From Candidatus Pacearchaeota archaeon (GTDB lineage: Archaea; Nanobdellota; Nanobdellia; Pacearchaeales; GW2011-AR1): a stretch of DNA of 24,000 nucleotides. The DNA lies in NCBI GenBank assembly GCA_041659945.1, contig JBAZXH010000001.1, forward strand, positions 28,363 through 52,362, read 5' to 3'. This document shows positions 2,719 to 23,776 of this stretch, one piece after another. The notes under the pieces were generated by a model. The model had not been told where the DNA came from. It saw only the letters and a program-made list of their open reading frames with translations, and did not search any database. How positions within the stretch are numbered: position 1 is the stretch's first letter; the number at the start of each line of letters is the position of its first letter. A program made the translations under genes and the position numbers.

Positions 2719-3045
2719 TTAATTTCCAGCTATTCTCCTTTTTGCAAATCCTCTTAAAAAAGTTACTGCATTACTTAACTCATCAAATTGATCTACTTCT
2801 CTTCTAATTTGAGTTTGAAATTCTTTAGCTTCTCCTCTACTAATATTTTCTCTAAGCTCTTGATAATAAGTCATAAGATTCCCAAGTTCAATAAAACGAA
2901 CTAGGTTAGGATTTCTTAGAAAAATAGCATACCCTTCATCATATTCGCTGTTGCCCATTAATCTTTTAAACTCTTCACAAGATGCTTTATCTTCTTCATA
3001 AGCTCTCTCATCAGTATATATTATTTTATCTAATGGGTCTGTCAT
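2719..3045 (-). CDS. Hypothetical 108-aa, predicted helical protein inserted between SBDS and rrp4
   Basis: ORF with 2-nt and 1-nt spacers to its neighbours and AAGGAAAA 8-13 nt upstream of its ATG. No family recognised. Confidence 0.6.
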   Translation of the reverse strand: MTDPLDKIIYTDERAYEEDKASCEEFKRLMGNSEYDEGYAIFLRNPNLVRFIELGNLMTYYQELRENISRGEAKEFQTQIRREVDQFDELSNAVTFLRGFAKRRIAGN

Positions 3046-3047
3046 TT

Positions 3048-3728
3048 TTATTTTTCCTTAATCTCTTCAGCTATTGCTGAACCGTGAGTCATTGAATTTA
3101 GTTTATCATAAAATTCCATTTGAAATCCTACAGGAATATTAAGCCTGCATTTTAAGTCTCCGTTAGACATCCATTCTTCTGATTCTTTATAAATCTGTAG
3201 TAAACCATATATCTGTCCGGTATAGGCAACTGGGATTGTAACCAAAATCTTTTTTGTTTCAATTTTTATTGGAATAATTAATCTTAGTTTATCAACAATT
3301 TCGGGTATTTGTGCTTCAACTGGTTTATTTGTTATGTTAGCTCCTGCTTCATCAAGAGATCTTTCGATTCTTTCTGGAGTGTAGGGTCTATTTGTTCGGG
3401 GATCAACTGCATTTCTAACTAAAAAGTCAACTATTTGTTTGAATTTTCCTTCTCTTTGCTTTTCTTTGTATTCGGCAGGAACTTGAACTTCTCCATTTTT
3501 AACAATCTTTGCAGCAATTTCATTAATATCTTCTGTTTTAAATGCATCCATTAAATCTTTTTGGGTTGGTTTAAGACCTTTTTTTGAATCTGTAAAAATA
3601 AAATCTGTTTCTAAAACACCTTGGATGTCTCCTTGGCCAGAGCGTTTAAATTCTAAAGCTTTATCTAAATCAACTAAGATTTCAAAATTTTTTCCATTGG
3701 TCTTAATTCTAGCTATAACATCAGTCAT
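3048..3728 (-). CDS. SBDS/Sdo1-family ribosome maturation protein
   Basis: The N-terminus VIARIKTNGKNFEILVDLDKALEFKRSG is typical of SBDS. About 226 aa, and sits between psmA and rrp4 as in the archaeal superoperon. Confidence 0.85.
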   Translation of the reverse strand: MTDVIARIKTNGKNFEILVDLDKALEFKRSGQGDIQGVLETDFIFTDSKKGLKPTQKDLMDAFKTEDINEIAAKIVKNGEVQVPAEYKEKQREGKFKQIVDFLVRNAVDPRTNRPYTPERIERSLDEAGANITNKPVEAQIPEIVDKLRLIIPIKIETKKILVTIPVAYTGQIYGLLQIYKESEEWMSNGDLKCRLNIPVGFQMEFYDKLNSMTHGSAIAEEIKEK

Positions 3729-3737
3729 TTTATTTTA

Positions 3738-4466
3738 TTAACTCTGGATAATTTTTCTTAAAGAAGTCTCATCAAGTTTAGTTACTTTTTTTTCTTCTTT
3801 GTCAACATAAGCAACATCAAATCTACTTAATTCAAAATTCTTTCCAAGAATCTCCTTAAATATATCTAAAGCAAGTTTAATTCCTCCGTTAATATTTGGC
3901 ATTTTTTCTAGTTTCATTCTAAGTATTTCTTTTATTTTTTCGTCATTTTCTCCAATTGACATTGCTTTATATGAAAAATAATTTCCAGTAATATCTGAAG
4001 AAAATATTTTTGGAGTTTCTCTGTCAATTCCAGCAACTAAAATAGCGACGCCAAAAGGTCTTGCTCCTCCATATTGAGTATAAAGTTGTTTTGTATTTGC
4101 AATTTCTCTTATTATTTCTTCGACTTCAACTGGAGAATCATAGGTAACTCTATTTTGTTGAGCAATAACTCTTGATTTTTCAATTAGTACTCTTGCATCA
4201 CTTAAAATTCCTGCTGCACTTGCAATTATGTGAGAATCAATTTCATAAATTTTGCTTGCAGAGTCTGGTAAAATTAATTTATCATTAACTCTTCTATCTG
4301 CAACTATTATCACTCCGTCTGTGCAAACAATTCCTATACTTGAGCTACCAAGGCGAACGGTTTTTTCTGCATATTCTACCTGAAGTAAATGTCCATCAGG
4401 TGAAAACATTGTTGCAGCACGGTCGTAACCCATTGCTTGATGCTGTATTTCACTTGGCATATCCAT
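3738..4466 (-). CDS. psmA: Proteasome subunit alpha
   Basis: MGYDRAATMFSPDGHLLQVEYAEK is the alpha-subunit N-terminal signature. Also GARPFGVAILVAG. Confidence 0.92.
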   Translation of the reverse strand: MDMPSEIQHQAMGYDRAATMFSPDGHLLQVEYAEKTVRLGSSSIGIVCTDGVIIVADRRVNDKLILPDSASKIYEIDSHIIASAAGILSDARVLIEKSRVIAQQNRVTYDSPVEVEEIIREIANTKQLYTQYGGARPFGVAILVAGIDRETPKIFSSDITGNYFSYKAMSIGENDEKIKEILRMKLEKMPNINGGIKLALDIFKEILGKNFELSRFDVAYVDKEEKKVTKLDETSLRKIIQS

Positions 4467-4620
4467 TTTGTTTTTCCTCTTTGCCCATTCAGGGCGTATA
4501 AACTTAGAAAGTTAATAATATATATCTACTTACTTTCTCTACCGTTTTTTAAAGGAAGCAAGGGTTTAAAAAGTTTTTGATGGAGAAATCTGCAAAACTT
4601 TTGGTGATTTTTACGAATTA

Positions 4621-4851
4621 TTATGACAATCTTTCAACTAAATCTAATCCTGTGAATCCTGCACAATTAGTCCCATCAGGTTGCCATCTTGTAATAGGAT
4701 TATTTACTCCCTCTACTTCTCCAGCATAATAATTATCTGGATGAACTTTGTCAAACTCTCTAAAGTCTATGTGATTTCCAACTAACGCTTCGCGTCCATC
4801 TCTTGTTCTGTATCTTGCTCCTTCTTCTAGTTCTTGTGTCATTTTAATCAA
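4621..4851 (-). CDS. Hypothetical 76-aa protein (Arg-rich, 7 R / 2 K) between pop5 and psmA
   Basis: ORF with a TATA-like box 20-26 nt upstream of its ATG. No family recognised. Confidence 0.5.
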   Translation of the reverse strand: MIKMTQELEEGARYRTRDGREALVGNHIDFREFDKVHPDNYYAGEVEGVNNPITRWQPDGTNCAGFTGLDLVERLS

Positions 4852-4867
4852 GAAATCGATATTAACT

Positions 4868-4879
4868 GGGTTTAAAAGG
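4868..4879 (-). promoter_or_regulatory. TATA-like box (minus sense CCTTTTAAACCC) for the 76-aa ORF; implies a leaderless or near-leaderless mRNA
   Basis: The TTTAAAA core at 4871-4877 is 20-26 nt upstream of the ATG at 4851. This spacing recurs at many genes in this window. Confidence 0.3.
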
Positions 4880-4883
4880 CTTT

Positions 4884-5171
4884 TTATGACTTTGTCTTTT
4901 CTCTCAATTTCTTCAAGGTCCCGCTAACTCTGACGACTTCTATGCTTTTGCCAGAATTCACTAAAATAAAACTCCCTCTAACCTGATTGACATACTCACG
5001 ATTAACTGCTAGAATATTATTGGTTATCCAAACTGGTGCAGCTTTTGCATAACCTAAAACACCAATAAACTTTAAAATAGCTTCTTCAACATCTTTTTTA
5101 GTGAAGTTGCCTTTGAGTAAAAGATATCTTTTGTTTTCTTTCATGCTAGGTTTTAGGGGTTTTAGGGGCAT
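4884..5171 (-). CDS. rnp2: RNase P protein component 2 (Pop5 homologue)
   Basis: LKPSMKENKRYLLL near the N-terminus and VRVSGTLKKL near the C-terminus match archaeal Pop5. Lies upstream of psmA as in the conserved superoperon. Confidence 0.7.
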   Translation of the reverse strand: MPLKPLKPSMKENKRYLLLKGNFTKKDVEEAILKFIGVLGYAKAAPVWITNNILAVNREYVNQVRGSFILVNSGKSIEVVRVSGTLKKLREKTKS

Positions 5172-5278
5172 AGATTAACAAAGAAAAAAGGATAATTAAA
5201 ACTTTTGTTTTTTAATTATTCTGTATAACATAAATCTATTTAAAGAAATCATATCTAAAATTTAATAGGTTAAATAAA

Positions 5279-5548
5279 ATGGCAGGCATTAGAATATCAG
5301 GAAGGGCGAGATTAAGAGAGGATTTTAGCAACCCTAAGAATGTTCGGTATTATGCAGTCTTAGATGTCTATGCAGATGAAGAAAGACAAGCAAGTATGCC
5401 TACACCTAACTTTATTGTTGAAGTACTCCTAGCCAAAAGTACTTATGATAAGTTAAGAAAAGATTTAGAAGAATCACAAGCTCAAAGCCCAGTTTTGCGT
5501 CTTAAAGGAGAATTAGAAATAGTTTTAGATTCTGAAAGCTTTGCTTAA
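5279..5548 (+). CDS. Hypothetical 89-aa soluble protein (8 R / 5 K)
   Basis: ORF preceded by an AT-rich, TATA-like stretch. No family recognised. Confidence 0.5.
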   Translation: MAGIRISGRARLREDFSNPKNVRYYAVLDVYADEERQASMPTPNFIVEVLLAKSTYDKLRKDLEESQAQSPVLRLKGELEIVLDSESFA

Positions 5549-5611
5549 GAAATAATTAAATGTTTTGAATTTTATACATAATTATTTAAAATCGCTTTTT
5601 TTGATTGAAAA

Positions 5612-5893
5612 ATGAAATTAAGCAAGATCCAAAACATTAGAAGAAATATTGCTTGTGTTGTTTTAGGAACTTCTGCATTATTTTTTGTTGTAGGTAATGA
5701 AGTTAGAGGTCTTGACCAACCAAATTATTCAGAAGTTAGAATTGACTATGAAGCAACATGGATGTTAAGAGAGCAACTAAAAGGAAATATGAAGGGAGAT
5801 TTTGTTATTCCAGAAAATAAGAGATATATTCCTGGGCTAAGAAACCCAGTTTTTTGTCATGAAAAGTATAGAGAGATTACTTCGTTTACATAA
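5612..5893 (+). CDS. Hypothetical 93-aa protein with an N-terminal membrane anchor
   Basis: Hydrophobic segment IACVVLGTSALFFVVG after a basic N-terminus. AATTATTTAAAA lies about 30 nt upstream. Confidence 0.5.
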   Translation: MKLSKIQNIRRNIACVVLGTSALFFVVGNEVRGLDQPNYSEVRIDYEATWMLREQLKGNMKGDFVIPENKRYIPGLRNPVFCHEKYREITSFT

Positions 5894-5989
5894 TTTTTCT
5901 AAAATTCCAGATCTAATTATTCCTACTAAAGTTTTATAAACCCGTTTATGATTCCTAACTAATTTTAAAACATATAAATTTTAAATTCA

Positions 5990-6301
5990 ATGAACTCATC
6001 AAAATTAAAAACTTCGTTAGCATTATTATCTTTAGTGATAGCTGGAGAATTAAGTTATGATGTTGGTTTAATATGGGATAATTATCGTGCTGCTAAAACT
6101 ACCGTTACAAGCACTGAAGCAAGAACTGAAAATTTTAGTCCGCTGGAAAAAATGCCTCAAAGTCAAATGTATGATACTTGGCAAGAGAGGGATAAAATTT
6201 TACCGGGACCATATGACCAACCGCAGGATAACAATTTAATGAAGGCGCCATATAGAGTTATAAAACTTGCTCCTGACAAGATAAATGAATTTAGAACTTA
6301 A
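5990..6301 (+). CDS. Hypothetical 103-aa protein with an N-terminal signal or anchor
   Basis: KTSLALLSLVIAG hydrophobic N-terminus followed by a P/Q/D-rich remainder. TATA-like TTTTAAAACATATAAA lies upstream. Confidence 0.5.
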   Translation: MNSSKLKTSLALLSLVIAGELSYDVGLIWDNYRAAKTTVTSTEARTENFSPLEKMPQSQMYDTWQERDKILPGPYDQPQDNNLMKAPYRVIKLAPDKINEFRT

Positions 6302-6348
6302 AAAAGTAATATAATAATCTTTTTAAACAATTAAGTTGAGTAATAATT

Positions 6349-6993
6349 ATGGATAATAAAACCAGACAACCTATATGGGAATTTGATAGAGGGTGGAGTT
6401 CATCTGCACCATGGGGAGATTATTGCTATGAAGTAGCTAGATCGATAGGACCTCAAAAAAGTAGTAGAGGATTTGAGTGGGGTGTCAATCCAGGAGAACT
6501 AATTCTTTTGGTGGAGCCAAGACCAATGCAATGGTATGGTTTACCATATCCGGTTGTTGCTGAGTTTTCAAGGCTAGAAGAATCAGATTATGATTTGTCT
6601 AAAGGAGTTGGTCCATTTTCACGTCCAAAAAACCACGAAGAAGATGAAGTACTTATTTCATTAGGAGCAAGTTATAGAGCAGTGGAATCAGCTTGGCTGG
6701 TTGCAAAAGAGGCTTTTTTTATTAAGCCTGCAAAAGAAATGGGAGGTATTAAGTTACCTAATTTTGAGTTTTTAAGAAAGGGAAGAAATTTTAATCATTT
6801 CGGAGCTAAGAGTCCGTATGGTTGGGCTAATGGAGATTTAAATCATTATAATTTAACAAGAGAGCATGCAGTGATTGTTTCGGGCGATGAATTAGTGACT
6901 GCCCTTAGAGATATTGGAGATACAGAAAGTCTAATCAAACTTTTAGAAAAAACGAAAAGAGGACATAAGATTAATTTAGCTGCTTTATCTTGA
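6349..6993 (+). CDS. Hypothetical 214-aa soluble Trp-rich protein
   Basis: Clean ORF with 7 Trp. TCTTTTTAAACAA lies about 20-30 nt upstream. No family recognised. Confidence 0.6.
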   Translation: MDNKTRQPIWEFDRGWSSSAPWGDYCYEVARSIGPQKSSRGFEWGVNPGELILLVEPRPMQWYGLPYPVVAEFSRLEESDYDLSKGVGPFSRPKNHEEDEVLISLGASYRAVESAWLVAKEAFFIKPAKEMGGIKLPNFEFLRKGRNFNHFGAKSPYGWANGDLNHYNLTREHAVIVSGDELVTALRDIGDTESLIKLLEKTKRGHKINLAALS

Positions 6994-7100
6994 TAAGAAA
7001 TTATAAATATAAGTATTTCTGTATAAAAATATGAGAGTTTTATCTGCAAAGTTATTTAAACCACTATTTATTACCTATTATATAAAAAGAGAAATTAAAA

Positions 7101-8438
7101 ATGTTTAGAGTATACACAGTTGGAGGGTACAATGAAGTTGGCCGTAATATGACGGTTATCGAATATAAAGAGGATGCTTTTATTTTTGATTTGGGCTTTT
7201 ATTTACCTGCAGTAATTGATCTACAGGAAACAGATAAAAATCCAACATATCAATCATTAAAAAGTATAGGTGCTCTACCGGATGACACTTATCTTGAGAA
7301 AATAAGACATAAAGTGAAGGCTATTTTCATAGGGCATGCACATTTGGATCATGTGGGTGCAGTACAATATGTTTCTGATAAGTACCCTAATGCTGAAATT
7401 TTAGGTACTCCGTTTACAATAGAAGTGCTAAAAACACTTATGCAAGATACTAGAATAACAATAAGAAACAAGATAATTACAGTTCAACCAAATAATTCCT
7501 ATGTTGTTAAGGGAAAGAGTGGAAACTATGAAGTTGACTTCATTAATGTGACTCACTCGACAATTCAAACTGCAATATTAGGTTTACATCTACCTGAAGG
7601 AGTTATTGTATATGCTAATGACTATAAACTTGATGATAACCCTACTCTTGGACTTCCTCCGAATTATTCTAAACTAAGAGAACTTTCTAACAAGGGAGTA
7701 AAATTACTAATAGTTGATGCTCTATATTCTGGGAGTGAAAGAAAGACGCATAGTGAAAAAATTGCTAGAGCAATGGTTGAGGAAGTTATGTTAACAATAG
7801 ATCATGATAACAAGGGAATTATAATAACAACTTTCTCATCACATATAGCTAGACTAAAGAGCATAGTAGAATTTAGTAAAAAATTAAATAGAAAACCAGT
7901 TTTTGTTGGAAGAAGTTTAACAAAATATGTTAGTGCTGCTAAAAAAATAAAAATGTGTCCTTTTGAAAATGATATAGACATGGCAAGTTATCAAAATCAA
8001 GTTAAAACAAAACTAAAGATAGTTAATAAAAATAGAAAAGATTATGTTTTGGTTTGTACCGGACATCAGGGAGAGCCAGGATCAATACTTGATCGAATAG
8101 CGGGTAAGAAATTGCCATTTATGTTTCAACCTCAGGATAGTTTGATTTTTTCCTCAAAGGTTATACCTTCACCAATAAATATATCAAATCGTGCTACTAT
8201 GGAAAAGAAAATAAGAAGTTCAGATGTAAGAATTTTTGATGATGTTCATGTTTCAGGACATGGTGGAAGAGAAGACCTTAGAGATATGATAAATTTATTA
8301 AAACCAAAGTACATAATACCTTCACATGGGAGTTTAGATCAGCTAACTCCTGCGGTAGAACTAGCAAAAGAGATGGGTTATCAATTTGGAAAAACATGCC
8401 ATTTATGCCAAAATGGGGGAATGTTAGAATTAAACTAA
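7101..8438 (+). CDS. rnj: Archaeal RNase J (metallo-beta-lactamase / beta-CASP ribonuclease)
   Basis: GGYNEVGRNMTVIE N-terminus, the HxHxDH motif in IGHAHLDHVG, and HVSGHGGREDL near the C-terminus. The roughly 445-aa length fits aRNase J better than aCPSF1, which is longer and carries KH domains. Confidence 0.75.
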   Translation: MFRVYTVGGYNEVGRNMTVIEYKEDAFIFDLGFYLPAVIDLQETDKNPTYQSLKSIGALPDDTYLEKIRHKVKAIFIGHAHLDHVGAVQYVSDKYPNAEILGTPFTIEVLKTLMQDTRITIRNKIITVQPNNSYVVKGKSGNYEVDFINVTHSTIQTAILGLHLPEGVIVYANDYKLDDNPTLGLPPNYSKLRELSNKGVKLLIVDALYSGSERKTHSEKIARAMVEEVMLTIDHDNKGIIITTFSSHIARLKSIVEFSKKLNRKPVFVGRSLTKYVSAAKKIKMCPFENDIDMASYQNQVKTKLKIVNKNRKDYVLVCTGHQGEPGSILDRIAGKKLPFMFQPQDSLIFSSKVIPSPINISNRATMEKKIRSSDVRIFDDVHVSGHGGREDLRDMINLLKPKYIIPSHGSLDQLTPAVELAKEMGYQFGKTCHLCQNGGMLELN

Positions 8439-8439
8439 A

Positions 8440-8901
8440 ATGGTAAGATATGACATAATTACTGCCATACGAAATGCTGTTGAAAGAGGTGAATCAATTG
8501 AAAAAGCAAGACAGGTGCTTATTAATTCTGGATATAATGTAAATGATGTAAACGAGGCAGTTAACTACTTAACTGGTGGAGCAAGTAATGAACTTCAAAA
8601 TGCCACCTATCAAAATCAGCCTACACAGCCTCAACAAACCCAACAACCCCAGATAGCTAATCAACCAAAGGTTGTTTCGCAATCAATTCCAACACAGAAT
8701 CAAAATGTTCCTCAAAAACTGCCCGTTCAAATGAATCATTTGGTTGTAACTTCTGGAGATGAGGCTCCCAACAAAAAGAAAAATACTGTGGCAATAATAA
8801 TTCTTGCTGTGTTACTTGTTTTGCTTTTTGCAACATTAATGCTTACTTTAATATTCCAAGAACAGGTAATCAGTTTCTTTCAAAAATTAATGGGAAGTTA
8901 A
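8440..8901 (+). CDS. Tail-anchored membrane protein: small helical N-domain, Q/P-rich linker, C-terminal TM
   Basis: The ATG lies 1 nt after the rnj stop. Q/P-rich YQNQPTQPQQTQQPQIANQP and a C-terminal TM, VAIIILAVLLVLLFATLMLTLIF. Confidence 0.6.
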   Translation: MVRYDIITAIRNAVERGESIEKARQVLINSGYNVNDVNEAVNYLTGGASNELQNATYQNQPTQPQQTQQPQIANQPKVVSQSIPTQNQNVPQKLPVQMNHLVVTSGDEAPNKKKNTVAIIILAVLLVLLFATLMLTLIFQEQVISFFQKLMGS

Positions 8902-8919
8902 TTTAAAATTAGCCGGAAA

Positions 8920-9519
8920 ATGACAATTGTTTATGAAGCTTCTGATGATTCATATTTTTTAGCAGAAATTGTGGATAAGTATTTAGTTAATTTGAAAAAA
9001 GAAAAAATAAAAGATATTAAGGTTCTTGACCTTGGAACTGGTTCTGGAATTCAATCAAAAAACTGCATAAAATTAGGAGTAAAAAAACAAAATATTCTTG
9101 CGATTGATATAAACTCTAGTGCTTTGGATAGAGTAAAAGAGCTTAAAGTTAAAACATTAAAATCTGATTTGTTTGAAGCATTTAAAAGGAAAGGTAGTGT
9201 TAGGAGAAACTTGGTTCTCCCACAAAAGTACAATTTAATTATATTTAACCCGCCTTATTTGCCTGAAGATAAGTATGACAAGCTAAAAGATACAACTGGT
9301 GGAAAAAAGGGTGATGAAACTATTGTTAGGTTTATTGGAAAATTAAATAAACACCTATCTGAAATGGGAGTTTGTTTTTTGCTTACTTCTTCTTTTACTC
9401 CTGAAAAGGCTTGGAAAGCTGAAGCTAAAAAACAAAAGCTAGAAGTTAAGAGGTTAGCTAGGAGGAAACTATTCTTTGAGGAATTGTATGTTTGGGAGAT
9501 AAAACTGAGTAATTCTTAA
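8920..9519 (+). CDS. HemK/Mtq2-like N5-glutamine (release factor) methyltransferase family protein
   Basis: VYEASDDSYFLAE N-terminus, SAM motif I VLDLGTGSG, and the catalytic NPPY in IIFNPPYLP. The roughly 200-aa length is typical of archaeal Mtq2. Confidence 0.7.
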   Translation: MTIVYEASDDSYFLAEIVDKYLVNLKKEKIKDIKVLDLGTGSGIQSKNCIKLGVKKQNILAIDINSSALDRVKELKVKTLKSDLFEAFKRKGSVRRNLVLPQKYNLIIFNPPYLPEDKYDKLKDTTGGKKGDETIVRFIGKLNKHLSEMGVCFLLTSSFTPEKAWKAEAKKQKLEVKRLARRKLFFEELYVWEIKLSNS

Positions 9520-9593
9520 GTACAATCATATTTATAAAAAGCAGTTTTATAGAGGTATATTATGGAAAAATATAATAAAGAGGTGCCAGAGGC

Positions 9594-10751
9594 GTGAAGT
9601 TTGCACATTTGGGAGATTGTCATTTGGGAGGGTGGAGATTTCCGGAAATTCAGGAATTGAATATGCAGAGTTTTTCTCAAGCTCTTGATGTTTGTATAAA
9701 AGAAAAGGTAGATATGGTTTTAATTGCCGGAGACTTGTTTGACTCAGCATATCCTCCAATAGAAATATTAAAAAGGACATTTGCAGAGTTTAGAAAGTTG
9801 AAAGATGCTGAAATACCCTGCTTTTTGATTGCTGGATCTCATGATTTTTCAGCTTCTGGAAAAACATTTTTAGATGTTTTGGAACATGCAGGGTTTTGTA
9901 GTAATATTGTGCAGGTGGAAGAAAGGAATGATAAATTAATTCTAAAACCAACAATATTTCAAAATTATGCAATCTATGGTTATCCTGGAAAAAAGGCAGG
10001 TCTTGAAATACCTGACTTGAGAAGAATTATTTTTGATGATGCTCCGGGGTTTTTTAAAATCTTTATGTTACATACTGCGTTAAAAGAAGCTATTGGAAAT
10101 TTGCCAATAGATGCAGTTTCTATGAAAGAGCTGCCTCAAGCAGATTACTATGCAATGGGACATTTACACATAGATTTTTGTAATAACAAATTTGTGTATT
10201 CTAGTCCAATATTTCCAAATAATTTTGAAGAGTTGGAAGAATTAAAGTATGGGGCGTTTTACATAGTTGAGTTTGATAAAATTTTAAGGTGTAGAAAAAT
10301 CCCAATAAGGCTCAGGGAAGTACTTGTTATTAATCTTGAACTTGATAATTCAATAACTGCAACTGAAAAAATAATAAAAGAACTTGATAAGGAAGTTTTG
10401 GAAGATAAGATAATTTTACTAAAACTAAAAGGCCAATTTACAAATGGAAAGATTTCTGATATAAGATTTAATGAAATAGAACAATTTGTTAAAAACAAAA
10501 AGGCTTATTCATTTATTAAGAATATTTCCAAGCTTTCTGTGGAAGAATCTCAAATAAAAATTGAAGCCAAAGATATGCATGAAGTAGAGGATGATATAAT
10601 GCACCAGTATTTTGAAGAAAATCCTTCAAAATTTGGAGACAAGGTACCTCTTCTTTTAAAGACATTGAGTATTGAAAAACAGGAGGATGAAAAAAACCAG
10701 ATATTCAATGATCGTCTTTTGGATGAACTATCAAAAATATTAAATTTTTAG
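9594..10751 (+). CDS. mre11: DNA double-strand break repair nuclease Mre11
   Basis: Phosphoesterase motifs GDCHLG, AGDLFD, AGSHD, MLHT and MGHLH, and an N-terminus MKFAHLGDCHLG. GTG start with GAGGTG 8 nt upstream. The in-frame stop at 9576 excludes a longer N-terminus. Confidence 0.88.
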   Translation: MKFAHLGDCHLGGWRFPEIQELNMQSFSQALDVCIKEKVDMVLIAGDLFDSAYPPIEILKRTFAEFRKLKDAEIPCFLIAGSHDFSASGKTFLDVLEHAGFCSNIVQVEERNDKLILKPTIFQNYAIYGYPGKKAGLEIPDLRRIIFDDAPGFFKIFMLHTALKEAIGNLPIDAVSMKELPQADYYAMGHLHIDFCNNKFVYSSPIFPNNFEELEELKYGAFYIVEFDKILRCRKIPIRLREVLVINLELDNSITATEKIIKELDKEVLEDKIILLKLKGQFTNGKISDIRFNEIEQFVKNKKAYSFIKNISKLSVEESQIKIEAKDMHEVEDDIMHQYFEENPSKFGDKVPLLLKTLSIEKQEDEKNQIFNDRLLDELSKILNF

Positions 10752-13972: not shown

Positions 13973-14245
13973 TTAACCGCCAAGAAATAGACTTTTTATA
14001 AAGAACTTAAGTGCCCATACATTTAGTAGGATAAAGTTAACTAATATTAGTATTAGGAATATGAACAATAAAGTCCAAAGAGCTGTTTTAATTGGACTTT
14101 TCTTTTTTGGTTTGTTTCTTGAGGTGACTCTATTCATAACATCTTTTATATCATCAGCTATTCTTTCCTTATTTTCTTCTCTTTCATTAGATGCTCGTTC
14201 TCTTTGAATATCATCAAGAGTTTTGATTTTACTTTTTCCGGCCAT
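13973..14245 (-). CDS. Tail-anchored small membrane protein (90 aa)
   Basis: Charged N-terminal half, then the TM segment ALWTLLFIFLILILVNFILLNVWAL. Confidence 0.5.
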   Translation of the reverse strand: MAGKSKIKTLDDIQRERASNEREENKERIADDIKDVMNRVTSRNKPKKKSPIKTALWTLLFIFLILILVNFILLNVWALKFFIKSLFLGG

Positions 14246-14411: not shown

Positions 14412-16124
14412 CTAACTTAGAAAGTTATTCCAGGCTTTGTAGCTAGAATAAACTTCACTAGAATATTGTAAACCTTTTGCACTTAGCTGCCCATCATTGT
14501 ACACACTTAAAATACATTTTATCTTAGTGTCACCAGTTTTATCATTGCAAATAGCATAATTTGGATTTTCATTATTAAATGCTGATTTTAGGGTATTTGA
14601 TGCGCCGTTTAGCTGGGGTTCTAGTCCGTAATTAGCTTTATTACTAACATCATAACCCATCAGATATGCATCAAATATTTCAGTTTGCCCATTGGGATGT
14701 CCGAGTGTAGATTCTTGCTGCGCAATTGCAACTAAAACAGACTTAAACTCACTTGAGCTAAGACCTTGTGGAGGAGATTGGGCAACTTTATCAAAATAAT
14801 CTTTTATTTGAGAATATCTGTCTTGCAAAATTGGTTGGGGCAAAGTTCCAGTTTTTTCAAGTTGAACAACACTAGCTGAATCTGAAACTACTAAGGGTTT
14901 TGATGCTGAACTTTCTGAATTTTGTGTTGATTTTGAATTTGTTATATATGAATTCTGATTAACATTGCCCATTAACCAAGGAGCTTGACCTTGGTTAATT
15001 GTAGAAATTACATTCCCTTCATTATCTTTGAGAACATATTGGTATTCATTTTGATCATTTTTTAGAAGGTCAAGTTGTTTTGCGTTTGATGAAGAAATTC
15101 TAGAGTAGTCTGCAAAAGAATCTTCTAGTGCTGTGCGCGTTTGTGTACCAACAATTCCATCTTCTAAAATTCCTTTATTTGTGCGAGCATTATAATCTTT
15201 TTGAAATTTTAATACTGCTTTTTTTGTTTCTTCATCATATATTCCATTCTGAGGAACATCATATCCTAACGATTTGAGGGATGTTTGAATTTGTTGATTT
15301 GTAAAAAAGTCTTTATTTGCAGAAGGACGGTCTAGAGTTAAATCTGCTTTGTTTCCAACTGTAATCTGTCTACTGTTATCAAGATTAAGATCATAGCTTT
15401 GGCCCTCTGATGACTTTGCATAAAGTTTATCATTTTGAAAAGAAACAGAGTTTGAAGAAGTACTTTTTAAAAGGGGAGAAATTTGGAGAAGTGCAGAACC
15501 TGTGTTTAAAATATTGACTCCATTAACTTTTGCAGTACTTCCTGGAGGAAGATACATTTTTCCGTCTTTGATTAGTAGATTATCATATTCAATTTGTCCG
15601 CTGAGGCCCGGAAGTTTAAATGCTCCATTTTCTAATTCAATTGGACCGTTTTTTGAAAGTTTGGAGAAATCAAGAGTAGAATAATCTTGATTTTGGGTTT
15701 TTCCTGGAAGTTTGACTAAAATTTTATCTTGTGTTATTGTAATCTCTGTGTTTACTGGAAGGGTCTTTACATCAAAAACACTGAGTTCTTTATTTGGAGG
15801 AGTAATTTTTCCCTCTGTAGAATATGTAATGCCGGCTAAAGAATTTTCAATTTTTATCACATACTTGCCTTCAAGTATTTCTTGACTATACTTATCTATA
15901 TTTCTTGAGATTAGTTCTTGATTTAAACTGTTAAAAATTGGTTTTGCTTCAACAAGATTAATTGCTTGAGGAGCTTTGTCCAGATACTCATTGATACAAA
16001 CCGGATTTTTATAATCTGGCAGACCCGTAGGTGGGCAGACAATTGGAAAAACAATTGAAAAAGCTAGAGAAATAAATAAAAAAACTAGACAAAATAAAAA
16101 TAGTATCTTACTTGTTAAGTTCAT
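14412..16124 (-). CDS. Secreted protein with a peptidoglycan-binding (PG_binding_1-like) domain and a C-terminal lytic-transglycosylase/lysozyme-like (SLT-like) domain
   Basis: I prefer the start at the ATG at 16124 (M14 of the track ORF), which has GGAGGT 7-8 nt upstream. The signal peptide is MNLTSKILFLFCLVFLFISLAFS. A PG-binding-like segment, LKSLGYDVPQNGIYDEETKKAVLKFQKDYN..DGIVGTQTRTALE, spans nt 15123-15302. The C-terminus carries AIAQQES, YLMGY and VYNDG, spaced like the ES / GLMQ / AYNxG motifs of family-1 lytic transglycosylases. Confidence 0.65.
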   Translation of the reverse strand: MNLTSKILFLFCLVFLFISLAFSIVFPIVCPPTGLPDYKNPVCINEYLDKAPQAINLVEAKPIFNSLNQELISRNIDKYSQEILEGKYVIKIENSLAGITYSTEGKITPPNKELSVFDVKTLPVNTEITITQDKILVKLPGKTQNQDYSTLDFSKLSKNGPIELENGAFKLPGLSGQIEYDNLLIKDGKMYLPPGSTAKVNGVNILNTGSALLQISPLLKSTSSNSVSFQNDKLYAKSSEGQSYDLNLDNSRQITVGNKADLTLDRPSANKDFFTNQQIQTSLKSLGYDVPQNGIYDEETKKAVLKFQKDYNARTNKGILEDGIVGTQTRTALEDSFADYSRISSSNAKQLDLLKNDQNEYQYVLKDNEGNVISTINQGQAPWLMGNVNQNSYITNSKSTQNSESSASKPLVVSDSASVVQLEKTGTLPQPILQDRYSQIKDYFDKVAQSPPQGLSSSEFKSVLVAIAQQESTLGHPNGQTEIFDAYLMGYDVSNKANYGLEPQLNGASNTLKSAFNNENPNYAICNDKTGDTKIKCILSVYNDGQLSAKGLQYSSEVYSSYKAWNNFLS

Positions 16125-16914
16125 TAAAACAACCTCCCGTGCTGTTACACTCTGGAAAATCATAAGTTCCTATGAACTTAAACTCATAGGGACTTGAGGT
16201 GAAGTTAGAATCGTAGTCAGTTAAGGTATAAAGAAATACATTATTTGAATCTAAAACTTTTAGTTTCATATTCTTTTCTTTAATAGAGTCAGAAACACAT
16301 GAAAAACAAAGAGTATTCTTACTTTTAACTTGTTTGTTTATCAATTGATTTACTGAATTTAGTATACTGGGTAATTTTAGTGGTTCGACTCTTGTGCTAA
16401 ACACGGATATTTTTGCCGTTGAACTACCCTTTTTAATTGTAAGAGGCATATTTAGGGTTACTTCTGTGTAATTTTCATTAATTTTTGTTGTTGCCTGAAT
16501 ATCTTTAAAACTAACAGAGATACCTTGATCTGTAAATTGCTGAAAGTCATCTAAACAATCTTTGATGTTATATTCTATAGAATGACTTATTTCTGTTTGA
16601 ATAGACTCTAATGTTGGTACATAGCTGTTATCATTTTGAATAAATACTGGATATTCATAGAGAAAGATATTTATTTTATTTGAGGTTAGGTTGAAATAAC
16701 CTCCTTTTTGGCCAATGCTTGTTATTGAAGTCTCGGATGTTGTCTTTAGACAAGATTCAACAAATAGCTTAATATTTTGTGCTTCTGGTATTTTATCTAA
16801 ATTTTCTTGATCTGGAAGAACATTATAGTTTTTAATTGCAAAGAAGATTATAACTGCAGCAATTATTACTATGGCAATTATAATAAAAATAGTAACCTGG
16901 CCTCTTTTGTTCAT
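16108..16914 (-). CDS. Class III (type IV pilin-like) signal peptide protein, 268 aa
   Basis: In MNKRGQVTIFIIIAIVIIAAVIIFFAI, the RGQVTI stretch fits the archaeal prepilin-peptidase pattern [KRDE][GA][ALIFQMVED][ILMVTAS]x3 and is followed by a hydrophobic helix. Its 3' end overlaps the downstream enzyme gene by 17 nt. Confidence 0.65.
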   Translation of the reverse strand: MNKRGQVTIFIIIAIVIIAAVIIFFAIKNYNVLPDQENLDKIPEAQNIKLFVESCLKTTSETSITSIGQKGGYFNLTSNKINIFLYEYPVFIQNDNSYVPTLESIQTEISHSIEYNIKDCLDDFQQFTDQGISVSFKDIQATTKINENYTEVTLNMPLTIKKGSSTAKISVFSTRVEPLKLPSILNSVNQLINKQVKSKNTLCFSCVSDSIKEKNMKLKVLDSNNVFLYTLTDYDSNFTSSPYEFKFIGTYDFPECNSTGGCFNELNK

Positions 16915-16944: not shown

Positions 16945-17211
16945 TTAACCTACAACTTGTTTTATATTTGAGATGTTGTCTGCAACATCAGTACCTTTTT
17001 TTGTTAGCTTGATAAGCTTTATTCTACCTTTTTTTTCAAAAGTTACAAGTCCAAGCTCTTCTAGTGTTTGAAGAATCTTAACTGCGTGACTATAGGTACA
17101 ATCAACTTCTTTGGCTAGAACAGAACCGTATCTTACTCGGGCTAGCTTTCTTAGAGCAATCATCATAAGTGCTGGCTTTCTTCTAAAAAAGATATCAAAG
17201 TTGTCTTTCAT
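16945..17211 (-). CDS. Small winged-helix-turn-helix transcriptional regulator (88 aa)
   Basis: GSVLAKEVDCTYSHAVKILQTLEELGLVTFEKKGRIKLIKLTKKG reads as helix-turn-helix plus a beta-hairpin wing (MarR/ArsR/TrmB-like topology). Assigned by pattern only. Confidence 0.6.
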   Translation of the reverse strand: MKDNFDIFFRRKPALMMIALRKLARVRYGSVLAKEVDCTYSHAVKILQTLEELGLVTFEKKGRIKLIKLTKKGTDVADNISNIKQVVG

Positions 17212-19793: not shown

Positions 19794-22121
19794 ATGGCAA
19801 AACTAAGCAAAAAGGCAGAGAAAATAAAGAATTACGAAGTAAATCAAATAAAAGAGAATTTTGTGCCTATTGATGAAAAAGATTTAGCTCATGCTGTGGA
19901 TGTGCCTGTAAAAGAAAAGAAGACCGAGGAGATAGAATTCAAATCTCCAAAGGCTAGGGCAATTAAAGAAAAAAGAGGAAAAAGAACAACTAAAAAGAAA
20001 GTCATAAAAAAGAGTGCAAACTGGGCTGAAGAATTTAAAGTTCCAGGTCCTGAAAAATTAAATCCAAAGGGAAGTATACTTATAATAACTGAAAAACCTC
20101 AGGCTGCAAATAAAATTGCTGATGCTCTTTCTCGGGGAAAATCTGTTAAAAAAAATCTTGAGGGTGTTTCTTACTATGAGTTTGAAAGAGATGGTAAACC
20201 AATAAATGTTGTTTGTGCAGTTGGTCATTTGTTTACTCTTGCGCAAGTGAAACCTAGAAATGTTTGGCCAACATTTGATATAAAATGGGCACCTAATTAT
20301 CTTGTTAGGAAAAATGATTTTACAAAGAAATACTATGATGTTATTGCAAGAATTGTGAAAAAGGCTTCAAGTATTATTGTTGCTACAGATTATGATATAG
20401 AAGGAGAGGTAATTGGTATGAACATTGTTAGGTATATTTGTAATCAAAAGGATGCTGAAAGAATGAAGTTTTCAACTCTTACTGCAAATGAAATTAGTGA
20501 GTCATATGAAAAACGTTCTAAAAGTTTGGATTGGAAACAGGGAATTGCCGGAGAAACAAGGCATTATTTAGACTGGATTTATGGGATTAATTTATCAAGA
20601 GCTCTGATGGATGCTGTGAAAAGTGCTGGCTCATTTAGACTAATGTCCATTGGGAGAGTTCAAGGACCTGCATTAAACATTATTGTGAAAAAAGAACATG
20701 AGATAATGAATTTTAAATCAGAGAAATATTGGGATGTTTCGCTTGATATTGATGATGGTAAAAACCTGTTGGAAGTAAAGTATACTAAAGGTATAACTAA
20801 GGAAAAAGACTTAGAAAAATTCAAGCATCTTGAGAAAAAAGAAGGAGAGGTTAAAACAGAAAAATCTCAGCAAAGAATTAATCCTCCAGTTCCTTTTGAT
20901 CTTACAACCTTGCAGATAGAGGCATATAAATTCTTTAAAATAACTCCGTCAAAGACCTTAGAAATAGCTCAGAGTTTATATCTTTCTGGAATAATCTCCT
21001 ATCCAAGAACAAGTAGTCAAAAGATACCTAAGGAGATTGGCTATGATGTAATATTGGATAGGCTCTCAAAAAGATTTAATTTTGTAAAATTTGCAGAGAA
21101 AACAGTTCCCATTGAGGGTAAAAAAACCGATCCTGCACACCCTTCAATATATCCAACTGGAGAGTTTCATAGTTTGGAAGGGGAAGAGGAAAGAATATAT
21201 GACTTAATTGTAAGAAGATTTGTTTCTTGTTTTTGCAATGAAGCAATACTTGACAATAAAAAAATAGAATTTGTTATTGATGGTATGAAATTTAACACTA
21301 AAGGTATGGCCATTGCTGATGCTGGATGGATGGAAGTTTATCGTTCAGAGGCAAAGGAAAGAGAATTGCCAGATATGAATGGAAAAGCTACTGTTAAAAA
21401 AGTAAAAATTGAAGAAAAAATGACTCAACCACCGCATAGATATACTCCTGCATCAATAGTTTCTGAACTTGAGAAAAAAAATCTTGGTACAAAGGCTACA
21501 AGAGCAAACATTCTGGAGACTCTTTATGATAGAAGTTATATAAAAGAAAAAAGTATTCAGGCAACAAGCTTGGGAATTTCTTTGATAGATACTCTAAATC
21601 AAAATTGTCCGATAATTGTTGATGAAAAGCTAACAAGAGACATAGAAAAACATCTTGATGCAATAAGAGAATCAAAAAATCCTTTGGATAGTGAAAAAAA
21701 AGTTCTTGATGAAACAAAAAAAGTATTATATAGGATTGGTGAAGATTTTGAAAAAAATAAGCTGAAGATAGGACAAAGCCTTATTGAGGCAACTACAAAG
21801 CTTTGGGAAGAGGAAAAAAAGCAAGGTCAAATTGGAGTATGTCCTGTTTGTAAAAAGGGAAATTTAACAATAAAATATGGTAAGAAGTTTAGTAGATATT
21901 TTGTAGCTTGTGATGCTTATCCAGATTGTAAAACCACCTATAGTTTACCGCCAAATGCCCTAATTAAGAAAACTGATAAAGTTTGTGCAGAATGTGGATT
22001 TCCTATGTTAATGTCTTTGAAAAAAGGAAAAAGACCCTGGATTTTTTGTTTTAATCCTAATTGTGCTAGTAGAAAAGAGAAAATAGTTAAAGAAGTTGAA
22101 TTGAATGATGAGACAAATTAA
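19794..22121 (+). CDS. topA: DNA topoisomerase, type IA, with a Lys-rich N-terminal extension and C-terminal zinc ribbons
   Basis: Toprim motifs LIITEKPQAA and ATDYDIEGE, and the active-site tyrosine motif ISYPRTSS. C-terminal ribbons are CPVCKKG..CDAYPDCKTTY and CAECGF..CFNPNC. Confidence 0.9.
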   Translation: MAKLSKKAEKIKNYEVNQIKENFVPIDEKDLAHAVDVPVKEKKTEEIEFKSPKARAIKEKRGKRTTKKKVIKKSANWAEEFKVPGPEKLNPKGSILIITEKPQAANKIADALSRGKSVKKNLEGVSYYEFERDGKPINVVCAVGHLFTLAQVKPRNVWPTFDIKWAPNYLVRKNDFTKKYYDVIARIVKKASSIIVATDYDIEGEVIGMNIVRYICNQKDAERMKFSTLTANEISESYEKRSKSLDWKQGIAGETRHYLDWIYGINLSRALMDAVKSAGSFRLMSIGRVQGPALNIIVKKEHEIMNFKSEKYWDVSLDIDDGKNLLEVKYTKGITKEKDLEKFKHLEKKEGEVKTEKSQQRINPPVPFDLTTLQIEAYKFFKITPSKTLEIAQSLYLSGIISYPRTSSQKIPKEIGYDVILDRLSKRFNFVKFAEKTVPIEGKKTDPAHPSIYPTGEFHSLEGEEERIYDLIVRRFVSCFCNEAILDNKKIEFVIDGMKFNTKGMAIADAGWMEVYRSEAKERELPDMNGKATVKKVKIEEKMTQPPHRYTPASIVSELEKKNLGTKATRANILETLYDRSYIKEKSIQATSLGISLIDTLNQNCPIIVDEKLTRDIEKHLDAIRESKNPLDSEKKVLDETKKVLYRIGEDFEKNKLKIGQSLIEATTKLWEEEKKQGQIGVCPVCKKGNLTIKYGKKFSRYFVACDAYPDCKTTYSLPPNALIKKTDKVCAECGFPMLMSLKKGKRPWIFCFNPNCASRKEKIVKEVELNDETN

Positions 22122-23776
22122 AACTTTTTATCAAATAATCTTTGTCCGCCCTGAGGGCCTACAAATTTAGTACTTGGTGGGCTTCCAGGAGAACCAGGAG
22201 GTCGAGGTATTGAAGAAGGTAATCTTCTTGGCGTTTTTGAACCACCTTTTTTCATAAGAATAAATGCAATTACTCCTATAACCGCAATTATTAAAATAAC
22301 TATAACTACAATAATTATAATCATTGTGCTACTTGATCCACAACTATCCTTGCAAGAACCATCATCACATAAAATCTGGCCTGAAGGGCAAACATCAGTA
22401 TCACAACTTGATTTACAAACACCATCACATAAAACTAATCCTTCATCACACTGAGCTTCTTGGTAATCACATTTTCCAGGAACTTTCATTGGTTCGGCCC
22501 ATTGACCGTTTATACATAAAATAATTTCCTGATCGTCTGTGCATCCGGGTTCAGCACCTTCATTACATTCGCCAGTATAATTTTGGTAGATAATTACATG
22601 TCCAGTGTTATTCTTTAGAACACAAATTCCACTGGAGCAAGCATAGTTTGTTGGACATAAATAAACTGAAGCATTTGGGTGATTGTTTATATCACAGTTA
22701 AACTCAAGCAAAATTTCTTCTCCCTCAACAGAACAAGAGTCATAATAATAACTATAATTTCCTACTACTGTGTTGTTGATTAAAGCAGTAAAGTTAACAA
22801 AGCCAGCTGAACTATAGTTTAAACCTCCAACCTTATTACAAAAATATGTTACATTACCTATGCAAGCTTTTTCACTACAACCATTTGGACATGTAAAACT
22901 ATTATGATTTACACTTGTTCCGTTACAATAATATTCAAGAAGTGCATTTGAATCTTCACAGGCATCTTCATAGAGAATTGGAACTCCATTAAAAGTAGTA
23001 TTTACTTTAGCTTGAATAAAGTATTGAACTGAAAGATTGTAATCTCCATCTGTATCTATGCAAAACGGATCAACAATAGTATTTGGAACAAAAGAATCTG
23101 CAAGTATTTCTTCAGCGGTTAGAGAGGTATTGTAGATCTTTATTTCATCTAGTGTACCGTTAAAGTATTGAAAGCTTTTAGAAAAATTTACCTGATCAAT
23201 GAAAGCACCGATTGTTAAATTTCCGGTAGGAGTTGTAAATAACACTGGAGTGCTTGTACCGATTAGAGTTTTATTTCTATATACTTTTGCAACACTACCA
23301 TTATAACTAACTGCAACATATTGCCAAGATTTTAAAGGAAAATCTGAGGTGTCAGTTACTTGAACATTGACTCCAGCACCATTTCCTATTGTGAACATTA
23401 GTTTGCTGTTGAAGATATTTAGGTAACCCCCATTGCCTCCAGTACCAGTACCATGGTTAATTAACATCATATTTCCATCTGCTGCTTTGTATACCCATGC
23501 TGACCAGGTGAATTTATTTAATGTAAGAGAATAATTTATTTTTGATTGGTTTATTGAAAGGTAACCATTAAATCCATCAAAGTAATCTGCTTTTCCTATT
23601 TTTCCTTGATCTATTGATGAAACTCCTCCATGGGAAGAGATTCCGTTTGCTAGAGAGTCACTAAAAGGAATATAAAAAAGCCTAGAACTTTCTTGAACAG
23701 CAAAAACAGTCAATGAACTTATAACTATTGCTAATAAAATTAAAGGTAAAACAACCAAAATCCTCTTTTTATCCAT
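22118..23776 (-). CDS. Surface protein: signal peptide, LamG/concanavalin-like domain, duplicated Cys-rich modules, TM anchor, Pro-rich cytoplasmic tail
   Basis: Signal peptide MDKKRILVVLPLILLAIVISSLTVFAV. LamG-type hallmarks are FTWSAWVY, WQYVAVSYNGS and FNGTLDEIKIYNTSLTAEEI. The two Cys-rich modules end LLEYYC..CPNGCSEKAC and LLEFNC..CPTNYACSSGIC. The TM is MIIIIVVIVILIIAVIGVIAFILM and the tail is PRRLPSSIPRPPGSPGSPPS. Confidence 0.75.
   Translation of the reverse strand: MDKKRILVVLPLILLAIVISSLTVFAVQESSRLFYIPFSDSLANGISSHGGVSSIDQGKIGKADYFDGFNGYLSINQSKINYSLTLNKFTWSAWVYKAADGNMMLINHGTGTGGNGGYLNIFNSKLMFTIGNGAGVNVQVTDTSDFPLKSWQYVAVSYNGSVAKVYRNKTLIGTSTPVLFTTPTGNLTIGAFIDQVNFSKSFQYFNGTLDEIKIYNTSLTAEEILADSFVPNTIVDPFCIDTDGDYNLSVQYFIQAKVNTTFNGVPILYEDACEDSNALLEYYCNGTSVNHNSFTCPNGCSEKACIGNVTYFCNKVGGLNYSSAGFVNFTALINNTVVGNYSYYYDSCSVEGEEILLEFNCDINNHPNASVYLCPTNYACSSGICVLKNNTGHVIIYQNYTGECNEGAEPGCTDDQEIILCINGQWAEPMKVPGKCDYQEAQCDEGLVLCDGVCKSSCDTDVCPSGQILCDDGSCKDSCGSSSTMIIIIVVIVILIIAVIGVIAFILMKKGGSKTPRRLPSSIPRPPGSPGSPPSTKFVGPQGGQRLFDKKF

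Follow-up and report, generated by a model that had tools for sequence, protein, structure and literature searches.

The 24,000-nt stretch of a Candidatus Pacearchaeota archaeon analysed here (GenBank assembly GCA_041659945.1, contig JBAZXH010000001.1; hereafter the window) contains 38 open reading frames (ORFs), one of which, on the minus strand, encodes a 570-residue protein combining a putative export signal, a peptidoglycan-binding module and a C-terminal domain related to the GH23 lysozymes. We consider it probable that this Pacearchaeota (DPANN) protein is exported and works as a modular glycosidase of cell walls, most likely those of other, bacterial, cells. The gene and the parts of its product are laid out as follows, in window coordinates, with residue conservation counted over 48 aligned domain segments throughout.

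14412..16124, minus strand: gene for the 570-aa PG-binding/GH23-like protein, predicted to be exported; coding sequence 14415-16124, stop codon 14412-14414
16132..16137, minus strand: GGAGGT, a Shine-Dalgarno-like hexamer 7 nt 5' of the ATG at 16124, within the 3' end of the upstream gene
16038..16106, minus strand: hydrophobic segment, aa 7-29; Kyte-Doolittle 19-residue mean up to 3.03, the sole such segment of the protein
15315..16037, minus strand: N-terminal region, aa ~30-270; common to the two full-length orthologs only, with a conserved Cys pair near its start
15126..15296, minus strand: PG_binding_1 (PF01471) module, aa 277-333; it scores 38.9 bits in Pfam, where the cutoff is 23 (E 9.6e-10)
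14865..15125, minus strand: linker, aa 334-420; partly Ser/Asn-rich low-complexity sequence with no family match
14415..14864, minus strand: diverged GH23-like (goose-lysozyme/lytic-transglycosylase superfamily) domain, aa ~421-570, assigned from homologues, profiles and a structure model
14712..14714, minus strand: codon of Glu471 (in AIAQQES), the predicted catalytic general acid
14652..14663, minus strand: LMGY motif, aa 488-491, candidate counterpart of GLMQ; M in 43/48 and G in 45/48
14490..14501, minus strand: YNDG motif, aa 542-545, counterpart of AYNxG; Y in 46/48 and G in 44/48

The open frame (14412..16163, minus strand) gives 583 aa when read from its first ATG at 16163, and this version was called on an 832,568-bp ENA contig. 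We favoured the start at 16124 because NCBI uses the same start, the GGAGGT hexamer precedes it by 7 nt and the N-termini of the orthologs are of similar length; the short n-region that follows from this start also resembles that of the orthologs. The 570-aa gene of the original prediction is a real one, and its product is identical to MFA5992126.1/MFA6452500.1, a protein of a Pacearchaeota metagenome-assembled genome (763,970-bp contig) that NCBI names just "peptidoglycan-binding domain-containing protein". The two full-length orthologs, P0007 and P0008, are 36% and 32% identical to it over the whole protein.

As judged from sequence searches, the C-terminal domain is a real family that Pfam, NCBIfam and PHROGs do not recognise. 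An exhaustive phmmer search with aa 400-570 against 1.84 billion representatives returned 53 proteins at E<=1e-3, 30 of them at E<=1e-10. The position of Glu471 is occupied by Glu in 42 of the 48 segments and by Gln or Asn in the remaining six, and is followed by Ser or Thr in 44. Q84 and Y103 are kept in every segment, G70 in 45 and Y122 in 46. The copies with Gln or Asn (P0032, P0034, P0035, P0037, P0040 and P0055, with sequences such as AIAQRQSNLG and AIAHQNSWG) come mostly from large proteins.

The best profile relatives of this family were the g-type lysozymes. HHalign of the family profile against 120 g-type lysozymes, gathered for the comparison and carrying PF01464 annotation, gave 95.0% (P 9.6e-9) in global mode and 94.5% (P 8.2e-8, score 49.2) in local mode, and an independent 30-sequence g-type lysozyme alignment gave 93.2% (E 2.8e-7), with ~120-130 columns aligned. 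Among the controls, the reversed template reached 1% (score 16.7) and 30 block-shuffled templates a maximum of 7.9% (score <=22.9). Searched against the PDB, the profile aligned to the full length of cod g-type lysozyme (3gxk) with consistent motifs, at an E-value of 0.19 that is not significant alone; three RRM proteins which scored slightly above 3gxk were discarded, as their matches came from a short spurious 'LP..eF..L' stretch. The AIAQQES motif (Glu471-Ser472) aligned with AIISRES of g-type lysozyme and with ARQES of Slt70, every profile alignment placed VYNDG opposite the AAYNTG of g-type lysozyme, and Y-S-S-E-V paired with D-Y-S-N-D-V, so that the Glu-Ser, YNxG and C-terminal Y-[AS]-x-x-V motifs of g-type lysozymes all have an aligned counterpart in the archaeal domain.

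The original prediction had likened the domain to family 1 lytic transglycosylases such as Slt70, on the strength of a Glu codon at 14712-14714 and of the order and spacing of the motifs that follow. The motif observation held: LMGY and YNDG start 17 and 71 residues after the Glu, compared with 16 and 74 in E. coli Slt70 and with 24 and 78 in cod g-type lysozyme. Homology to the GH23/SLT superfamily was likewise borne out by the profiles, but membership of the Slt70 type was not, since the five domains of the family 1 enzymes (PF01464; E. coli Slt70, MltC, MltD, MltE and MltF), in a shallow alignment, gave 55% (P 1.8e-5), with the ES motifs aligned. By these comparisons, the C-terminal domain is closer to g-type lysozymes (95%) than to the five E. 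coli lytic transglycosylase domains.

The original prediction had also suggested a structural comparison with lysozyme-like folds, and this gave weak matches of that kind. AlphaFold2 run with a 38-sequence alignment produced a confident, all-alpha C-terminal domain with a pLDDT of 94.1 and a pTM of 0.90. In a Foldseek search of the PDB the top match was the GH23 chitinase of Ralstonia (3w6e, probability 0.97, TM 0.52), followed by Slt Cj0843, a Slt70 homologue, and gp13 of phi29, an enzyme that degrades walls. The top matches in BFVD were LT_GEWL proteins, phi29-type morphogenesis proteins, the PRD1 transglycosylase and phage tail lysozymes. These fold matches are weak one by one (E >= 0.25), and their weight comes from their agreement. 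We accepted homology to GH23 because the profile-profile comparisons reached 93-95% with clean controls, the best fold matches were GH23 proteins, and the ES and YNxG motifs aligned. Altogether, the sequence profiles and the predicted model support placing the C-terminal domain in the GH23 lysozyme-like superfamily, from whose other members it has diverged strongly.

Several observations weigh against reading this domain as a wall-cutting enzyme of the GH23 superfamily. The expected match to Pfam SLT (PF01464) failed to appear at E<=10 for the 570-aa protein, and no lysozyme-type Pfam family, PF01464 included, matched any of 38 aligned family members at E<=1. NCBIfam and PHROGs match the binding module only and are blind to the C-terminal domain, and a tblastn search with this domain against 50,697 phage records returned nothing. 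The LMGY motif pairs with GLMQ in the 3gxk and 120-lysozyme alignments but with GWGD in the 30-sequence alignment, which makes its equivalence ambiguous. At the position of cod Asp101, the second acidic residue, this protein has Asp, as do only 8 of the 48 members. The top fold match is a chitinase, and the fold does not fix substrate specificity. Finally, the Gln or Asn at the catalytic position in six of 48 segments suggests that some copies of the family may be non-catalytic binding modules. With Asp at the Asp101 equivalent in so few members, the predicted chemistry may be hydrolytic, as in lysozyme, or that of a lytic transglycosylase with a 1,6-anhydro-MurNAc product.

The original prediction had placed a PG_binding_1 repeat at 15123-15302, in close agreement with the PF01471 match, which spans profile positions 6-57 of 57 and lies above the Pfam gathering threshold; the ortholog P0007 scores 61.6 bits. 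PHROG endolysin families match the same residues, and phmmer matches in the PDB (4lpq and the phage lytic transglycosylase 3bkh/9xps) are confined to their PG-binding regions. In the ortholog P0008 (locus L003, 4484-6193) the module is degraded (19 bits, below threshold, with the first helix deleted in the alignment) and the GH23-like domain and the partner gene described below are intact, which indicates that PG_binding_1 is dispensable in some lineages.

The N-terminus begins with MNLTSK, a positively charged n-region, followed by 23 hydrophobic residues, and the orthologs share this layout. The Sec signal peptide of the original prediction is borne out in part, as a single hydrophobic stretch behind a charged n-region; its cleavage is less certain, as 23 residues are long for a cleaved Sec signal, and the segment could be either a Sec-type export signal or a signal anchor. 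A Kyte-Doolittle scan found no further transmembrane segment in the 570-aa protein, and a single-sequence AlphaFold model of the whole protein (pLDDT 40) was confident for helix 3-25 alone. The ~240 residues after the signal, noted as unassigned at the outset, remained so: aa ~30-270 have no Pfam, NCBIfam or PHROG match, a profile of the region found nothing below E 0.3 among PDB sequences, and the region is strand-rich in the low-confidence single-sequence model.

The gene resides in an archaeal chromosome. On one side it is flanked by the archaeal core genes for Rrp41, Rrp42, Rrp4, SBDS, proteasome alpha, Pop5, RNase J, Mre11/Rad50 and TFS, and on the other by genes for a winged-helix protein, a metallophosphoesterase and topoisomerase I. 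The archaeal neighbourhood described in the original prediction was therefore recovered and extended, except for RpoK, which we did not locate in the window. Contamination or recent horizontal transfer was considered and rejected in view of the uniform GC content (~0.33, flat over the enzyme gene and its flanks), the archaeal core genes on both sides (832-kb contig) and the recurrence of the enzyme gene with its upstream partner at all three orthologous loci, with further neighbours shared on the contig of P0007. The locus is old and vertically conserved.

The relatives of the C-terminal domain point in the same direction, as every informative genomic context of the family is archaeal. A scan of GTDB species genomes, which used a strict pattern from seven close sequences and so recovers close relatives and is no census, gave four loci, all titled Nanoarchaeota, Pacearchaeota or uncultured archaeon, with ThrRS, Rrp41/42, RpoK, enolase and GatE-like genes as neighbours. 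Among the other homologues, P0024 (2,126 aa) is named Nanoarchaeota, P0047 (locus L016) adjoins Pelota, RFC, L34e and SecY, and P0036 (locus L017, 4381-14673) lies between S3Ae and TFIIB genes with S8e also near. The domains fused to the family are directed at cell walls, namely PG_binding_1 in P0007, Peptidase_M23 in P0019 and P0021, and LysM with DUF1615 in the 3,430-aa P0036. About 20 of the 53 homologues are giants of 1,800-3,430 aa in which the domain often sits at or near the C-terminus. No Pfam domain was found in three of the four giants scanned, leaving the C-terminal domain as their lone recognisable wall-related domain, and a search of P0036 against the PDB gave no match. These giants are probably the DPANN proteins of 'up to 3,000 aa' in the literature.

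Giants that carry the C-terminal domain include P0014, P0024-P0027, P0031, P0032, P0034, P0036, P0039, P0040, P0042, P0045 and P0050-P0053. Beside a small family member in a Pacearchaeota genome, a 249-aa ORF (locus L012, 6760-7509, plus strand) has a twin-arginine-like signal (SRREFLATLGG...); a first guess that it is a SleB-type hydrolase was dropped for want of Pfam support.

These parts can be assembled into a tentative mechanism. The protein would be exported by its N-terminal hydrophobic signal and then either stay anchored in the membrane or be released, the PG_binding_1 module would dock it on bacterial peptidoglycan, and the GH23-like domain would cut the MurNAc-GlcNAc backbone with Glu471 as general acid. 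The archaeon may use it to hold on to bacteria, to break through their walls or lyse them, or to collect wall fragments. No murein-synthesis gene occurs among the 38 ORFs of the window, as the original prediction had already noted, and no wall-synthesis gene occurs in the 21.7-kb locus L001; because of this absence and of the minimal metabolism of the lineage (PMC8204110), a bacterial wall is the most plausible substrate.

The idea of such an enzyme in this lineage is already established, and the novelty attached to it by the original prediction was overstated. GH23 or murein-transglycosylase proteins of Pacearchaeota and Woesearchaeota have been published and read as tools against bacterial walls or hosts (PMC8204110, PMC9723730, PMC11537232, PMC10936187). 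For the binding or degradation of bacterial walls, PMC8204110 cites Rinke 2013 and Castelle 2015, and GH23 genes underpin the proposal of "vampiristic" Woesearchaeota (PMC9723730). Archaeal modular peptidoglycan hydrolases have been shown experimentally to kill bacteria, with Nanoarchaeota as prominent carriers (Strock et al., PMC12352652).

A partner gene accompanies the enzyme gene at its 5' side.

16108..16914, minus strand: gene for the 268-aa partner, whose last 17 nt lie within the start of the enzyme gene

A partner immediately precedes each of the three orthologs; at the other two loci the two genes overlap by 4 nt. The window partner is 37% identical to the partner at locus L003 (3693-4487; E 7e-56) and to a fragment at locus L015 (3-278; E 1e-22). 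A longer contig of P0007 has a 271-aa gene in the partner position, an 88-aa gene upstream of it and a TFS gene downstream, with protein identities of 32-37%; this 88-aa gene matches the one described next by size and position only. Directly 5' of the partner-enzyme pair in the window, and on the same strand, lies a gene for an 88-aa winged-helix protein (16945-17211; HTH_27, E 4.6e-6), which may be a local regulator. The partner itself has no Pfam, PDB or PHROG match. Its N-terminus reads MNKRGQVTIF, and that of a homologue contains KAQVTIF, in each case with a hydrophobic helix behind it; this resembles an archaeal class III (type IV pilin-like) signal. Several Cys residues of the partner are conserved.

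This conserved, overlapping partner is the sole new lead, a tentative one, and may point toward a surface "wall-opener". It is tempting to speculate that the enzyme is the wall-breaching accessory of a pilus-like apparatus, in which enzyme and partner would together perforate the sacculus of a bacterial host at one spot, so that the archaeon could attach or form a cytoplasmic bridge. Bacterial secretion systems, flagella and pili have specialised lytic transglycosylases that would be analogous, except that here the target would be another cell. The constant position of the partner, overlapping or abutting the enzyme gene at all three orthologous loci, and the fit of its N-terminus to an archaeal prepilin pattern would both agree with this, as would a family member fused to M23 that lies two genes downstream of a T2SSE/PilB-type ATPase. 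Against it, the prepilin reading comes from a sequence pattern and not from a predictor, the partner has no detectable family or structural relative, the window holds neither a prepilin peptidase nor a pilus ATPase, and the small family members at loci L011-L014 do not have such a partner. We regard this explanation as unlikely. Were it true, the pair would form a dedicated two-component "wall-opener" of Pacearchaeota, in which the partner, as a surface protein, would place the enzyme on the host sacculus so that the wall could be pierced and contact made. This would be direct genetic evidence that the hosts are bacteria and not archaea, and would give the specialised lytic transglycosylases of bacterial trans-envelope machines a counterpart that acts between domains of life.

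The ATPase-linked member, P0060 (598 aa, Peptidase_M23 fusion), lies in the region 3013-9797 of locus L004 (JGI 3300005573 contig), where the ATPase two genes 5' of it is 785 aa long; the surrounding block consists of genes without Pfam matches.

A somewhat less probable alternative, which we hold to be doubtful, is that an auxotrophic cell digests free peptidoglycan debris (necromass) for amino sugars and peptides and leaves living hosts untouched. It draws on the same domain evidence as the preferred explanation, and nothing in the sequence separates it from attack on living cells. The window contains no toxin or pore-forming gene, and Pacearchaeota genomes are reported to be rich in muramoyltetrapeptide carboxypeptidase, which has been read as use of bacterial wall peptides (PMC11537232). 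Against it, genes for muropeptide uptake or catabolism do not adjoin the enzyme gene in the window or in locus L001.

The substrate could also be something other than murein, either chitin or an archaeal wall glycan (the archaeon's own, or host pseudomurein), as the PDB fold that the model matches best belongs to a GH23 chitinase from Ralstonia sp. A-471 (3w6e/3w6b, probabilities 0.97 and 0.92). That match has an E-value of 0.28, 16% identity and an rmsd of 5.9 A, and nothing else in the protein or its homologues indicates chitin, whereas the PG_binding_1 and M23 partners indicate murein. Also against this explanation, lysozyme-type enzymes are not known to cleave the beta-1,3 linkages of pseudomurein, for which the known binding module belongs to a different Pfam family. 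Archaeal peptidoglycan hydrolases are, moreover, nearly absent from pseudomurein producers (Strock et al., PMC12352652). On its side stand the LysM of one homologue, a module that can bind chitin (PMC12352652), and the known DPANN hosts, which according to PMC8204110 are archaea. Taken together, we find a substrate other than murein improbable.

Slightly less favour can be given to a non-catalytic adhesin, in which the lysozyme-like domain would now merely bind glycan and the protein would tether the archaeon to bacterial walls; we rate it as very improbable. The copies without the catalytic Glu are compatible with it, as is a domain too diverged for any curated catalytic model, and attachment has been proposed as one role of large DPANN proteins (Castelle et al., PMC8204110). 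In this protein and both orthologs, however, the Glu-Ser/Thr pair is kept, as it is in 42 of the 48 members, together with the invariant Q84 and Y103 and with YNxG, a pattern of conservation that would be expected from selection for catalysis. A housekeeping autolysin that remodels a murein-like wall of the archaeon itself is hardly credible. In its favour, the gene has its place in a conserved, vertically inherited core neighbourhood of normal GC, where the 'weapon' peptidoglycan hydrolases of other archaea show a bias towards plasmids (PMC12352652). Against it, the 24-kb window and locus L001 hold no wall-synthesis gene, and the metabolic capacities of Pacearchaeota are, according to PMC8204110, the most limited.

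An exported glycosidase directed at bacterial walls, the explanation we prefer, shares features with several known systems. The g-type lysozymes are all-alpha and ~150 aa long like the archaeal domain, but identity is only 16-20%, Pfam SLT misses the archaeal domain, and the archaeal family has not kept the Asp residues with which g-type lysozymes assist hydrolysis. The domain is, moreover, part of a modular protein that adds a predicted export signal, an unassigned domain and PG_binding_1. The family 1 lytic transglycosylases share the superfamily, the motif order and a near-equal spacing; these bacterial enzymes act on their own wall from the periplasm. Phage endolysins of the phiKZ gp144 type (3bkh, 9xps), which were matched through the PG-binding region, have the same module order of a binding domain followed by a GH23-type domain. 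They are not known to carry an export signal or a large additional domain at the N-terminus, and SLT is recognisable in their catalytic domain, unlike in the archaeal one, for which the tblastn search of phage records gave no match.

Within the archaea, a close description is that of the giant DPANN proteins with a lytic-transglycosylase domain (fam00969, Castelle 2021), extracellular proteins of Pacearchaeota and Woesearchaeota that can reach ~3,000 aa and carry a murein-transglycosylase-like domain (PMC8204110). Likened by description, they agree in lineage and in proposed substrate and role, and the domain studied here occurs in the archaeal giants P0024 and P0036; the present protein differs in being compact and in adding PG_binding_1. 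The M23 + PG_binding_1 hydrolases of Halogranum salarium (PMC12352652) are likewise archaeal, exported (here by prediction) and equipped with PG_binding_1, in a producer without murein, but they are M23 endopeptidases whereas the protein described here has a glycosidase-like GH23 domain and is known from sequence alone. The hydrolases surveyed by Strock et al. are also plasmid-biased, in contrast to the chromosomal, syntenic gene in the window. Under the definition of a modular peptidoglycan hydrolase used by Strock et al. 2025 (PMC12352652), the protein has the binding domain and lacks a Pfam catalytic domain; since their survey required the latter, it would miss this protein.

Two further genes of the window deserve mention. 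A 552-aa protein (22118-23776, minus strand) has a signal-like N-terminus (MDKKRILVVLPLILLAIVISS...) and a Laminin_G_3/concanavalin-like lectin domain (E 4.5e-21), and is probably a further surface glycan-binding protein of the archaeon. Just 3' of the enzyme gene, a 90-aa ORF (13973-14245, minus strand) has a charged N-terminal half, a tail-anchor-like hydrophobic segment at its C-terminus and no family match. Near the ortholog P0007, an 89-aa gene in a similar position runs on the opposite strand and matches DUF4389, so that conservation of the ORF is doubtful.

What this analysis adds is that a compact protein named only for its PG-binding module appears to carry a catalytic-type GH23-like domain, and that this domain represents a GH23-like family, met to date in none but archaeal contexts, that is invisible to Pfam, NCBIfam and PHROGs. 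The protein is thus a better-annotated additional member of an established group of DPANN wall enzymes. Its NCBI name can be upgraded, and Pfam-based censuses of archaeal peptidoglycan hydrolases (e.g., PMC12352652) undercount such enzymes. With 570 residues, it is far more tractable than the published giants of 2,000-3,000 aa, and its modules could be expressed for tests on the walls of candidate hosts. Wall-degrading enzymes are the main genomic argument that some Pacearchaeota and Woesearchaeota live on bacteria; the present result refines that picture and does not change it.

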